Virus record (IMG/VR): IMGVR_UViG_3300021357_000002
Location: 6,979-70,978 of that record
From: a virus
DNA: 64,000 nucleotides
Strand: one strand, 5' to 3'
The position numbers and the translations under genes were made by a program. Of the stretch, positions 18,005-20,447 are shown one piece after another. The notes beneath the pieces were generated by a model. It made no database searches. It was not told where the DNA came from and saw only the letters and a list, made by a program, of their open reading frames with translations. Positions within the stretch are counted from its first letter, which is position 1. Every line of letters begins with the position of its first letter.

Positions 18005-18020
18005 AGGCGGGGATTGGGAT

Positions 18021-18047
18021 AAAAAAAGCCCATCAAGGGAGATGGGC
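18021..18047 (-). terminator. intrinsic terminator ending the RNA-gene cluster
   Basis: GCCCATC-TCCCTT-GATGGGC-TTTTTTT. Confidence 0.8.
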
Positions 18048-18129
18048 AAAATAATCAACGTATTCGGAAGTGAGATATACTTGGCGCGTATCTCTGTAAA
18101 TATACTGATTCAATACACTTAAAGAGATA

Positions 18130-18300
18130 TTGGTTGCCCATTATTAATCACACCGGGCCAGTGCGCCAGATTCTGTTATGAGGAACTGGAATACCTCACT
18201 GACTTATAAGCTATTAAGCCGCCATCAGAACAACATCATCGTTTGCATTTATGTTTTATGGTTCGTTTCTAAAAAACCGCATAATCGCTTACGAAAACTA
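18130..18300 (-). ncRNA. tmRNA-like mRNA domain encoding ssrA-type tag ANDDVVLMAA* (tag 18246-18214)
   Basis: AUAAAU-GCA resume context, tag begins AND and ends AA, TAA TAG inside a hairpin, pseudoknot upstream and two downstream; no tRNA-like domain found. Confidence 0.7.
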
Positions 18301-18305
18301 TCAAA

Positions 18306-18400
18306 GAGTACACTTACCCTGGTTTAGGAGTTGAACCTAATTGGGAAGTAGTTTACGAACATTTTTCACTTCTTTCGCGGTAACCACGATAAATGTACTC
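18306..18400 (-). ncRNA. tRNA-like structured RNA with 13-bp terminal stem
   Basis: GAGTACATTTATC/GGTAAGTGTACTC stem plus T-arm TTAGG-TTCAACT-CCTAA. Confidence 0.55.
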
Positions 18401-18428
18401 ATTGATAGGATGTTCATTATTTACTTGA

Positions 18429-18583
18429 GAAGATTCTGTATCACGTCTGATTATTGAGGTCAGGATTTGCACCTGAGATACCTTCCTTTCGGGAGAGTCG
18501 CTGAACTATCTATGGATTCCATAATAGACTCGCCAGTCTTATTACTTTCACCATAACCTGCGTTACACTCAATCAGAATCTTC
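18429..18583 (-). ncRNA. structured RNA with T-arm-like hairpin
   Basis: GAAGATTCTG/CAGAATCTTC terminal stem; TCAGG-TGCAAAT-CCTGA; AGACT-GGCG-AGTCT. Confidence 0.5.
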
Positions 18584-18599
18584 ACAACTAAACAATTAA

Positions 18600-18740
18600 G
18601 CTGGTTAGGCCAGCAACTCCCTGAGTTCGATAACAGAGTTCTAGTACTCTGGTATGTCCGGTTATTAAGCCTTCTATACAGGACAGGGTATACCTGTTTT
18701 AACTCTGCTTCCTCTAAGGAAAGCAATCTTCGGGTTACTA
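18600..18740 (-). ncRNA. multi-hairpin non-coding segment
   Basis: Hairpins at 18725-18706, 18697-18683, 18651-18634, 18614-18600. Confidence 0.4.
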
Positions 18741-18841
18741 TGGCAGCATAGTAAAGAGAACACTGTATGGGACTCGAACCCATCAAAAGTCACACAGCGC
18801 TATGGACGTCCACCTGTCAATGTCCTCATTACTATGCGCTG
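18741..18841 (-). ncRNA. tRNA mimic with extended acceptor-like stem and 3' CCA
   Basis: GCATAGTAA-T-GAGGACATT / AGTGTTCTC-T-TTACTATGC, T-arm ATGGG-TTCGAGT-CCCAT, ends TGCCA. Confidence 0.55.
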
Positions 18842-18900
18842 GTTTAAGCAGAGCCAGCTTGCTATCCCAATCGTCGTAGTAAAACGACAATTTGAGTTTA

Positions 18901-19077
18901 TTACGCTGGGAAGAAGAAATTCATCGTTTTATTATAACCAGCATCGATAATATCCATCTTGTGAGGACGGTCCATACGTTTGGCTACACGAGATTTTACT
19001 TCTGCTCTGCGAATTCGATGAGACATACTACGACGCTCTGCACGATTAGGTCCAGAGTTCATTTGGATATAACGCAT
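18901..19077 (-). CDS. small Arg-rich protein inside the tRNA cluster (58 aa, not in ORF track)
   Basis: AAGGA RBS; MRYIQMNSGPNRAERRSMSHRIRRAEVKSRVAKRMDRPHKMDIIDAGYNKTMNFFFPA*. Confidence 0.65.
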   Translation of the reverse strand: MRYIQMNSGPNRAERRSMSHRIRRAEVKSRVAKRMDRPHKMDIIDAGYNKTMNFFFPA

Positions 19078-19099: not shown

Positions 19100-19185
19100 T
19101 GGTGGGAGTAACGAGATTCGAACTCGTACAGCTATAAGCCGAGGGATTTTAAATCCCTTGTGTCTACCGATTTCACCATACTCCC
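19100..19185 (-). tRNA. tRNA-Leu(TAA)
   Basis: Cloverleaf, AGGGA-TTTAAAA-TCCCT anticodon arm, long variable arm, encoded CCA. Confidence 0.95.
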
Positions 19186-19187
19186 AT

Positions 19188-19264
19188 TGGTACACCCTAC
19201 TGGATTCGAACCAGTGACCTACTGCTTAGAAGGCAGTTGCTTCTATCCACTGAGCTAAGGATGC
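19188..19264 (-). tRNA. tRNA-Arg(TCT)
   Basis: ACTGC-CTTCTAA-GCAGT, T-loop TTCGAAT, CCA. Confidence 0.95.
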
Positions 19265-19265
19265 T

Positions 19266-19430
19266 TAGTACCCTCGTTTTGTCCGATGGTGAGGGTCCCC
19301 ATCTTCGTGCGCTTGGCTGGACTACCAGTTATTCATTTAAGAGTATGGCTATGAGAGGCAGGAAGCCCAGCCTTTTTACATACTAATAAACATACCGACC
19401 GGTCACGGATTGCAGAGTTACCTGCAAGTA
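19266..19430 (-). ncRNA. structured spacer RNA with H-type pseudoknot
   Basis: TTGCAG/CTGCAA hairpin, GGCTGG/CCAGCC stem, pseudoknot GATGG/CCATC plus ACCCTC/GAGGGT (19303-19270). Confidence 0.45.
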
Positions 19431-19506
19431 TGGCGATGGGATAGGGATTTGAACCCTAATATCACAGATTAACAGTCTGCTGCTTTACCGAGTTAGCTAT
19501 CCCATC
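19431..19506 (-). tRNA. tRNA-Asn(GTT)
   Basis: CAGA-CTGTTAA-TCTG, CCA. Confidence 0.93.
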
Positions 19507-19511
19507 ATAAT

Positions 19512-19597
19512 TGGCGGAAGATTGAGGAGTCGAACCCCTACCGTTACCAGCACCTCCGGGTTCAAACCGGATTGCCCACCACTGAGCGGAATCTTCC
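19512..19597 (-). tRNA. tRNA-Ser(TGA)
   Basis: TCCGG-TTTGAAC-CCGGA, long variable arm, G discriminator, CCA. Confidence 0.9.
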
Positions 19598-19600
19598 AAA

Positions 19601-19683
19601 TTCTTATTAAAGAGTCTCTAACCATCAGCGGTGAGGTAACACCCAATGGATGTTAGACTTGGCTAGAGACTCATTAATAAGAA
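19601..19683 (-). ncRNA. long-stem structured RNA
   Basis: TTCTTATTAA-T-GAGTCTCTAGCCA / TGGTTAGAGACTC-T-TTAATAAGAA with internal AACATCC/GGGTGTT hairpin. Confidence 0.5.
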
Positions 19684-19687
19684 CTTT

Positions 19688-19767
19688 TGATGAGGTGAGA
19701 CTCGAACTCACGTTCCTTCCCTTTGCCTAAGCATTGGTATTGTATTTGCCTATTATACGACTCATCA
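19688..19767 (-). pseudogene. pseudo-tRNA / tRNA-like RNA lacking a canonical anticodon loop and CCA
   Basis: Acceptor TGATGAG/CTCATCA, D stem GTAT/ATAC, T-arm GTGAG-TTCGAGT-CTCAC; anticodon arm has a 4-nt loop. Confidence 0.7.
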
Positions 19768-19775
19768 GGTTCCTG

Positions 19776-19900
19776 TTCTCGTTCACAGTGTCAGTTGTCT
19801 ATTCCAAACAGTCAATGGTCTACTCCCATCGTCGAGAAATTACCCTTTCCTATCGGGCCGCAACTACAAGTGTATTCCCCTAAGAGATACGAACTGTAGT
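19776..19900 (-). ncRNA. structured spacer RNA
   Basis: ACTACA/TGTAGT and TTCTCG/CGAGAA stems enclosing smaller hairpins. Confidence 0.4.
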
Positions 19901-19908
19901 CTATTGGA

Positions 19909-19985
19909 TGGTTGTCTCAACTAGATTCGAACTAGTGACCTTTCCCTTATCAGGGGAACGCTCTGACCTACTGAGCTATGAGACA
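19909..19985 (-). tRNA. tRNA-Ile(GAT)
   Basis: TCCC-CTGATAA-GGGA, CCA. Confidence 0.93.
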
Positions 19986-19988
19986 ATT

Positions 19989-20066
19989 TGGTGGTTCCAC
20001 CCGGTTTCGAACCTGGACACTCTCGGTTATGAGCCGAGTGCTCTAACCAGCTTGAGCTATGGAACC
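19989..20066 (-). tRNA. tRNA-Met(CAT), probably elongator (Ile2 not excluded)
   Basis: CTCGG-CTCATAA-CCGAG; paired G1-C72; U4-A69. Confidence 0.9.
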
Positions 20067-20071
20067 ATATA

Positions 20072-20158
20072 TGGCGGAAGATACAGGATTCGAACCTGTG
20101 GGACATTACATCCTATCGGTTAGCAACCGACTGCTTTCGGCCTCTCAGCCAATCTTCC
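20072..20158 (-). tRNA. tRNA-Ser(GCT)
   Basis: TCGG-TTGCTAA-CCGA, long variable arm, CCA. Confidence 0.93.
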
Positions 20159-20164
20159 AGTATT

Positions 20165-20248
20165 TGGTGTGGGATGATGGATTCGAACCACCGCGCCTTT
20201 CAGTGAGGATTTACAGTCCCCCGCAATCGACCACTCTGCCAACCCCAC
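20165..20248 (-). tRNA. tRNA-Tyr(GTA)
   Basis: GGGA-CTGTAAA-TCCT, variable arm, CCA. Confidence 0.93.
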
Positions 20249-20257
20249 ATATTTAGA

Positions 20258-20367
20258 TGGGCTTCTCACCCAATTGGACATTTGTTCTCTACTCCGCACC
20301 TAGCCTAATGGCTGTCTCAGCGTTTTGTTCCAGTGTCTACTGGAAGGTCTTCAGGTAGCGCTGAAGA
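20258..20367 (-). ncRNA. string of four hairpins between tRNA-Pro and tRNA-Tyr
   Basis: TCTTCAG/CTGAAGA, TTCCAGT/ACTGGAA, AGCC/GGCT, TGGGT/GCCCA. Confidence 0.4.
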
Positions 20368-20370
20368 TTT

Positions 20371-20447
<77 letters not shown>

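Follow-up and report, generated by a model that had tools for sequence, protein, structure and literature searches.

The stretch of DNA analysed here, a window of 64,000 nucleotides (nt) from the virus record IMGVR_UViG_3300021357_000002, belongs to a Salmonella podophage that is N4-like and closely related to FSL SP-076 and SP-058; its genome record of 71,442 bp is rated complete and is covered by the whole-genome searches reported below. On its minus strand, to which all features described for the window belong, nine tRNA genes (19100-20447) are followed by ~1 kb of structured non-coding RNA, the last part of which is a stand-alone structured RNA of ~170-180 nt that resembles the message half of transfer-messenger RNA (tmRNA), the universal ribosome-rescue molecule of bacteria, whose tag decides the fate of unfinished proteins. 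This element, delimited by profile and blastn to 18127..18306, is single-copy in the window, as a profile built from 43 family representatives matches 18306-18127 alone (E=1.3e-51). It is a widespread and apparently undescribed tmRNA derivative, of which the anatomy is solid and the function is a proposal.

The tag frame described in the initial annotation, GCA AAC GAT GAT GTT GTT CTG ATG GCG GCT TAA TAG, is indeed present at 18211..18246, as seen from the sequence and its copies: the ten codons from GCA to GCT (18246-18217) spell ANDDVVLMAA and are closed by the stops TAA TAG (18216-18211). The prediction that the frame of this mRNA-like domain would be kept in homologues is borne out as well, since exactly 10 codons and a stop are found in 110 of 110 unique copies without any indel in the frame, whereas the flanks of the frame do carry indels in an alignment of 43 representatives that are pairwise <93% identical (alignment A2). 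The 110 copies specify 19 different tag peptides, including ANDDVVLMAA, ANEEMYLAVA, ANDEQFLAVA, ANDNVFLAVA, and ANDDLMLMAA, in all of which position 6 holds V, I, M, F or Y and the last two residues are (A/V)A. Across the 33 distinct frames, mean variability is greatest at the third codon position (1.01 bits, against 0.63 at the first and 0.53 at the second), the final codon is always GCN with all four bases seen, and the stop occupies one fixed position as TAA, TAG or TGA, while the other two reading frames are not constant in length. Because of the missing indels, the third-position variability, the GCN end, the fixed stop maintained through three codons, and the constrained residue 6, the frame looks translated. 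Just upstream of the frame's resume codon lies AUAAAU (18247..18252), with U at -5 in at least 90% of the copies and an invariant A at -4 (alignment A2), the same positions as U85 and A86 of E. coli tmRNA, which set its reading frame (PMC2481249). According to a recent screen, terminal Ala-Ala is critical in ssrA-like degrons and an upstream Leu helps (bioRxiv 10.1101/2024.01.29.576913), and the ..LMAA tags are therefore expected to be degrons, with the ..LAVA tags being less certain.

The architecture around the frame is supported by compensatory change. The stop-codon helix and both downstream pseudoknots are 95-100% paired in A2, with 17 pairs changed on both sides, a level of covariation matched by 0 of 500 shuffles, and shifted registers fall to 35-48% paired. 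The end of the frame and its stops are enclosed by a helix-5-like stem (18199..18228; CUGA 18228-18225 with UCAG 18202-18199), which is 95% paired and compensatory in 4/4 pairs. The hairpin GGCTTA/TAAGTC, in which the initial annotation had placed the stop, is 60% paired, no better than shuffles, and is in the wrong register relative to CUGA/UCAG. The two pseudoknots, by contrast with that hairpin, emerge as proposed, with strong compensatory covariation. Pseudoknot A (18166..18198) combines TGAGG 18198-18194/CCTCA 18183-18179 with CCAG 18189-18186/CTGG 18169-18166, is 99-100% paired, and shows both-sided changes in 3/5 and 3/4 pairs, six compensatory in total. Pseudoknot B (18136..18164) combines GCACT 18164-18160/GGTGT 18154-18150, 99.5% paired, with GCCC 18158-18155/GGGC 18139-18136, compensatory in 4/4 pairs (helices 7 and 8), and carries the invariant loop GAUUAAUAAU. 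TGATTAATAA is likewise invariant in alignments A1 and A2, both of which include copies retrieved by that very motif. The 5' domain between the 5'-terminal arm and the resume region (18253..18290) is homologous to the region of pseudoknot 1 (PK1) in the coding RNAs of two-piece tmRNAs, as judged from the UCAGAGUUG block of these relatives in alignment A3, and may form a hairpin or a PK1 remnant with GGUU 18278-18275 and AACC 18263-18260 as its candidate stem. The full pseudoknot drawn in the initial annotation (GTTTTC/GAAAC plus GGTT/AACC) is 78-82% paired and gains hardly any support from compensatory change; across the candidate stems of the region pairing is 78-84%, and subtypes of the family differ here.

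The conserved element begins with (GA)UAGUUUUCG and stops just past the second pseudoknot, and no conserved CCA is found in the 3' tail. In the window, this tail (18018..18129, from a terminator scan) consists of a long hairpin (18129-18089) and then an intrinsic terminator with its stem at 18047-18028 and a U tract reaching to about 18018, and it is common only to close N4-like relatives. Siphophage copies are preceded by a promoter close to consensus (TTGACA, 17 nt, TAGATT), the end of which is 7 nt 5' of AGAUAGUUUUCG; the RNA thus begins at the conserved motif, with the arm at its extreme 5' end and no acceptor strand ahead of it; the predicted 5' end of the element RNA lies at or beside GAUAGUUUUCG.

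The absence of a tRNA-like domain, already remarked upon in the initial annotation, is confirmed by every search. ARAGORN calls nine tRNAs and zero tmRNA in the window. Over the whole genome, RF00023 reaches 10.2 bits, in the tag region only, against a gathering score of 47, RF04321 reaches 28.4 bits, again in the tag region only and below its gathering score, and RF01849 reaches 24 bits (Rfam thresholds 47-50). Every site in the window with a T-arm, 7-9 nt and CCA belongs to a called tRNA, and there is no orphan. The element itself contains neither a T-arm nor a UUCGAC D-loop analogue, has no GGUUUCGAC block, and is devoid of an acceptor stem with G3.U70 and of a chargeable 3' CCA; no separate acceptor piece occurs in the window or in the whole 71-kb genome, and no SmpB gene in the complete phage genome. 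As the genome holds neither acceptor piece nor SmpB, and no neighbouring RNA is constant, any constant partner would be host-encoded. Two substitutes for the missing half were considered and rejected. A closing or acceptor stem made of GUGCUCUU upstream and AAGAGCAU downstream fails, since the siphophage RNA starts 3' of the former motif and these motifs close neighbouring cassettes instead, and a plant-virus-like pseudoknotted acceptor formed by the second pseudoknot and the 3' tail has no conserved CCA and no third-pair G.U. A permuted-tmRNA call made by ARAGORN in one family member, the Felix O1-like contig L111, borrows a tRNA-Lys and overlaps three real tRNAs, and is judged spurious. On the minus strand of that contig (~2478-2518 and the bases directly beyond), a T-arm with ACCCUUC-G-CCA is directly followed by GAAGGGU-UA and a D-arm-like GUGU..GCAC, an order expected of a circularly permuted tRNA-like gene and the one used by ARAGORN; phage tmRNA surveys that count by this program may contain calls of the same type.

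Phage contigs with permuted two-piece tmRNAs, as called by ARAGORN, came out of a scan for the resume context, and on sequence comparison the coding pieces of such phage-borne two-piece tmRNAs are the closest relatives of the element. Each of these relatives has two parts, an acceptor piece with a T-arm and CAGGUCC-A-CCA, and a coding piece opening with GGGCCUG...GGUUUCGAC and including G3.U70. The element profile detects their coding pieces with E values of 1e-5 to 1e-8, and in alignment A3 the match extends from UCAGAGUUG through the frame into the first pseudoknot. In three of them (L338, L387, and L314), the resume context AAAAUAAAU/GCAAACGA is identical to that of the element, the tags have 10-12 residues and are similar (ANDERFLMAA in L314 versus ANEERFLMAA in an element copy), the UCAGAGUUG block precedes the frame, a pseudoknot with a UAACAGAAU linker follows it, and the coding RNA is a separate molecule. 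In contrast to the element, they possess an acceptor piece, an acceptor 5' strand and G3.U70. Their GGGCCUG...GGUUUCGAC has no counterpart in the element, which starts at the position of GGCUAUCCG; it is this GGCUAUCCG that occupies the place of the element's arm in the two-piece RNAs, with the tRNA-like half lying upstream of it. Complete permuted two-piece tmRNA genes are found on the environmental phage contigs L312, L314, L319, L329, L332, L338, L387, and L399, with the tags ANESVYRLAA, ANDERFLMAA, ANDNAFLMAA, ANDESAYLMAA, ANDNVYMVRAAA, ANDEKFRIAA, ANDSAYRLAA, and ANDDVYMVRAAA, respectively. A two-piece tmRNA has been reported for phage Melnitz, together with 53 tmRNA structures in other phage genomes (PMC9004378).

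With one-piece tmRNA (RF00023, E. coli ssrA), the element shares the GCA AAC GA start, U(-5)/A(-4), a 10-residue AND....AA tag, stop codons within a helix, and pseudoknots 3' of the frame; it differs in having no acceptor stem, D-loop analogue, helix 2, T-arm or CCA, in carrying two rather than three pseudoknots after the frame, and in showing little sequence similarity past the frame start. Known phage tmRNAs are complete one- or two-piece molecules (PMC4131195; PMC9004378; 79 phage sequences in PMC11915505), plus the form of mycobacteriophage DS6A, which contains little beyond the tRNA-like domain. A molecule similar to the latter strongly inhibits tmRNA (PMC4131195), perhaps by titration of SmpB (PMC4131195; PMC11915505). 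Both DS6A tmRNA and the element are phage-encoded halves of a tmRNA, and they are mirror images, the former a tRNA-like half without a frame and the latter a frame without a tRNA-like half. A literature search on the tag peptides and on phage tmRNA-like RNAs found no description of the element family, and no report of a phage tmRNA message half devoid of the tRNA-like half.

The same ~170 nt are carried by 686 phage records (blastn), mostly of lytic phages, which include N4-like Schitoviridae, Ounavirinae (Felix O1-like), Ackermannviridae, Drexlerviridae, Chaseviridae, and Klebsiella siphophages. In addition, the element is present in 56 plasmid records, mostly non-mobilizable Klebsiella plasmids of ~110 kb, and in 145 of 5426 complete E. 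coli genomes. The two E. coli prophages that were inspected have it flanked by the Q antiterminator gene on one side and the lysis genes on the other. Across phage, plasmid and E. coli records, it is nearly never annotated. A pattern scan of genome contigs returned chance matches only and is uninformative on the bacterial distribution of the element.

The 5' end of the element is antisense to the tag frame of host tmRNA, which makes host tmRNA its likely partner or target. The 5' arm UAGUUUUCGU (18291..18300) is the exact reverse complement of E. coli tmRNA nt 97-106, in tag codons 3-6 (GAC GAA AAC UAC), and in 38 of the 43 representatives the longest perfect complement to E. coli tmRNA is the arm site, nt 96-107. 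Of 90 unique upstream regions, 78 are complementary over 9 nt or more, 67 over 10 nt or more, and 8 over 11 nt. Between the main arm variants, UAGUUUUCGU and AGUUUUCGUC, one end loses a pair and the other gains one. On the host side, 25 of 31 tmRNAs from a sample of the same GTDB order retain the target nucleotide for nucleotide, and the target lies in a single-stranded part of the host frame, ranking 2 of 30 in accessibility among 10-nt windows; the arm-tmRNA hybrid has an energy of -10.2 kcal/mol. None of the 33 distinct phage tag frames contains the host target. In all eight two-piece tmRNAs, complementarity to the tmRNA frame stays at the background level of 5-6 nt, as opposed to 9-12 nt in the element, and the tRNA-like half would therefore have been lost together with the gain of the antisense arm. 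The signal is confined to this arm, as the energy of a full-length duplex between the element and E. coli tmRNA equals the shuffled mean and is uninformative. A second contact, of the loop UGAUUAA with UUAAUCA of tmRNA, was discarded, the tmRNA site being present in just 8 of the 31 sampled tmRNAs, and the complementarity of CUUUGCGG to host CCGCAAA, of which shared PK1 ancestry is the simplest cause, is not counted as evidence.

A divergent variant of the arm came from a search of viral contigs for an arm predicted to match the tmRNA variant GAC GAA CAA. The two contigs found, L310 and L299, are true divergent family members (E=4.5e-10 and 2.2e-9), and their arm GAAUUGUUCGUC is complementary over 12 nt to GAC GAA CAA UUC, a frame present in one sampled tmRNA, that of L281, with the tag ANDEQFALAA. 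In L310, the RNA starts directly 3' of the CCA of a tRNA-Arg with GAAUUGUUCGUC, so that the arm stands at the start, and continues with UCAGAGUU, a hairpin, AAAAUAAAU, a 13-residue frame (ANDDSFEVARLAA), and two pseudoknots. Eight of the 12 matching bases were imposed by the search, and the four flanking bases match too. The correspondence between this arm and the L281 tmRNA is a suggestive co-variation, not proof.

Short conserved 5'-terminal seeds complementary to a single-stranded site of a host RNA are characteristic of trans-acting small RNAs of bacteria and prophages. The element resembles these in its 5'-terminal arm and, in the window, its intrinsic terminator, and differs from them in that its target would be tmRNA rather than an mRNA and that its body is a tmRNA-derived template rather than an Hfq-binding module. 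The reading tentatively preferred here, held with somewhat less than even confidence, is that the element docks on host tmRNA, whose tag template it blocks or replaces. The element would descend from the coding piece of a phage two-piece tmRNA, having kept the resume context, a translatable 10-codon degradation-tag frame, the stop helix and two pseudoknots, and having lost the tRNA-like 5' part, the place of which would be taken by the first 9-12 nt, complementary to host tag codons 3-6. Through this arm, the RNA would dock on host tmRNA, and host tmRNA-SmpB, with host SmpB assumed to be present, would supply the tRNA-like function. Starting 7 nt beyond the resume codon of the host, the duplex would impede decoding of the host tag, in line with a report that pairing at nt 95-100 inactivates E. 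coli tmRNA (PMC2481249). Since pairing is antiparallel and a hairpin separates the arm from the resume codon of the phage, the resume regions of phage and host would come to lie side by side, and the tethered phage template could be read instead, such that unfinished proteins receive the phage tag. Docking, blocking and, above all, replacement of the template are what we infer. The more specific version, possible and rather doubtful, is that of a parasitic coding piece that turns the one-piece tmRNA of the host into a hybrid two-piece molecule, in which a phage tag (..LMAA or ..LAVA) replaces ANDENYALAA; if true, this would be trans-translation from a virus-supplied template in trans.

Several points weigh against docking. 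The duplex is short, with a net energy after opening costs of just -4.4 kcal/mol, and a translating ribosome is able to unwind 10 bp. For a single sequence, a 10-nt complement occurs somewhere in 4% of dinucleotide shuffles, and ~13% of the copies have only 6-8 nt of complementarity. As the arm is nearly invariant, the family amounts roughly to one observation plus the L310 variant, which itself comes from a search directed at that arm and matches the tmRNA of a sampled genome, L281. The arm could instead form an internal PK1 stem, AGUUUU/GAAACU. To our knowledge, there is no precedent for a template delivered in trans to a tmRNA-bound ribosome, and docking is a proposal from sequence analysis. 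A further subgroup of the element (L320, L340, and L369; IMG/VR contigs of 80-110 kb, profile E about 1e-15), with the tag ANDTQYLAVA, carries the arm CGUUUUCGG, which matches the host site over 7 nt; either these copies face a different host frame, or the docking idea does not fit them.

The strongest competitor, itself unlikely, holds that the element is an antisense inhibitor only, whose arm blocks or destabilises the host template, with the phage frame untranslated and the rest an inherited scaffold. It draws on the same complementarity as docking with template replacement and on the report that pairing at nt 95-100 inactivates E. coli tmRNA (PMC2481249), and the inhibition of tmRNA by a DS6A-like molecule makes phage interference with tmRNA plausible. 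What it leaves unexplained is the tag frame: the fixed and indel-free 10 codons, the variability of third positions, the GCN end, the stop kept as TAA, TAG or TGA, and the conserved frame-setting bases at -5 and -4. The coding-type conservation thus argues for reading of the phage frame over a mere block, while the lack of precedent and the weak duplex urge caution.

The same codon-like conservation of the frame speaks against a decoy, in which a mimic of the tmRNA message half would soak up a host factor (S1, SmpB, or RNase R) or a defence nuclease that attacks tmRNA, and the host-complementary arm would be left unexplained as well. Phage tRNAs can counter tRNA-targeting defences, and the element, an independent module with the invariant nucleotide blocks AAUGCAAACGA and UGAUUAAUAA, sits among phage tRNAs; a decoy is nevertheless regarded as quite improbable.

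The initial annotation had suggested a split tmRNA that borrows a tRNA-like partner from the T-arm RNAs just upstream. The ancestry implied by this suggestion stands, the nearest relatives being two-piece coding pieces, and T-arm cassettes and tRNAs are frequently nearby; the proposed partnership is not supported. The fold of 18300-18850 (z=-4.0) is a chain of modules, each closed by a 13-20-bp terminal stem. One of these, containing a T-arm-like hairpin and representing the third T-arm RNA (18301..18420), has a closing stem that ends exactly at the element start and that recurs in phage IME11 around a different interior. Another (18741..18837), with a GGGTTCGAGTCCC T-arm and a ~20-bp closing stem, is represented in Klebsiella phage Carvaje by a homologue placed directly downstream of the element, and among 126 contexts its family adjoins the element in only four, two on the upstream and two on the downstream side. 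The upstream T-arm cassettes have no free CCA and no G3.U70 pair. When the 1.5-kb flanks of the element were compared all-versus-all across phage families, the sole neighbour shared with the window flanks by more than two other loci was tRNA-Arg(UCU), at 8 loci. These flanks vary across phage families, and the element is thus a self-contained mobile module; the three upstream T-arm RNAs are shuffling cassettes and unlikely partners. A true split tmRNA, whose acceptor would be another phage RNA, be it a T-arm or tRNA-like cassette or a phage tRNA, is accordingly very unlikely: the window has no orphan T-arm with CCA, the cassettes are stem-closed, no cassette co-occurs consistently with the element (the RNA operon of phage Sf11 has none), and the element is without the two segments that pair with an acceptor piece, namely the acceptor 5' strand and the GGUUUCGAC block. 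Finally, there is next to no chance that the element is a non-functional fragment left by imprecise excision from ssrA, a common prophage attachment site of which prophage fragments have been reported (mentioned in PMC9004378), or an opposite-strand protein gene, stop-free for a median of 52 codons, because it represents the 5'/middle message part of tmRNA rather than the 3' attachment end, shares little sequence with host ssrA beyond the frame start, resides mostly in lytic phages and shows compensatory covariation, and because the opposite strand is open over at least 40 codons in no more than 14 of 43 members and its stops are variably placed.

The spread of a half-tmRNA in Enterobacteria, through at least six unrelated phage groups as well as prophages and phage-plasmids, suggests that phages commonly interfere with ribosome rescue, a strategy so far overlooked. 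If docking on host tmRNA holds true, a tmRNA template can be supplied in trans, which would constitute a natural tool to rewrite degradation tags and account for a gap left without annotation in many phage genomes. The element family merits an Rfam model.

Cassette arrays with a conserved terminal stem and a variable interior occur in the window (18300-18900, minus), in L001, L002, L009, and L010, and in many IMG/VR loci. In siphophages and prophages, their stems are ACAGGUAAGAGCAUU...AGUGCUCUUUCC and then GUUGUGGUGA...UCACCACAAC, and in N4-like phages AUCAAUGAGUACAUU...AAGUGUACUCUUUGAU; the interiors vary, some with T-arms, and the array looks like a shuffling system of small-RNA modules. In two Ackermannviridae loci (L107 and L003), the stretch 20-260 nt downstream of the element holds a tRNA-like RNA that neither ARAGORN nor Rfam calls. 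Its acceptor-like stem is GCCGUU/AACGGC, its T-arm is GGGUUCGACUCCC, its UCCA end is encoded, and ~110 nt are inserted between T-arm and acceptor strand. Between the last tRNA of the window (Leu-UAA) and the structured-RNA array, there is a 58-codon ATG frame (18901-19077, minus) in an operon that is otherwise RNA-only. Among the tRNAs of other phages, a tRNA with a CUA anticodon in Klebsiella phage Pylas (L011, 189-264), annotated as tRNA-Pyl, may be an amber suppressor, and a tRNA-like gene of phage IME11 (L001, 2357-2432) has an abnormal two-base anticodon according to ARAGORN.

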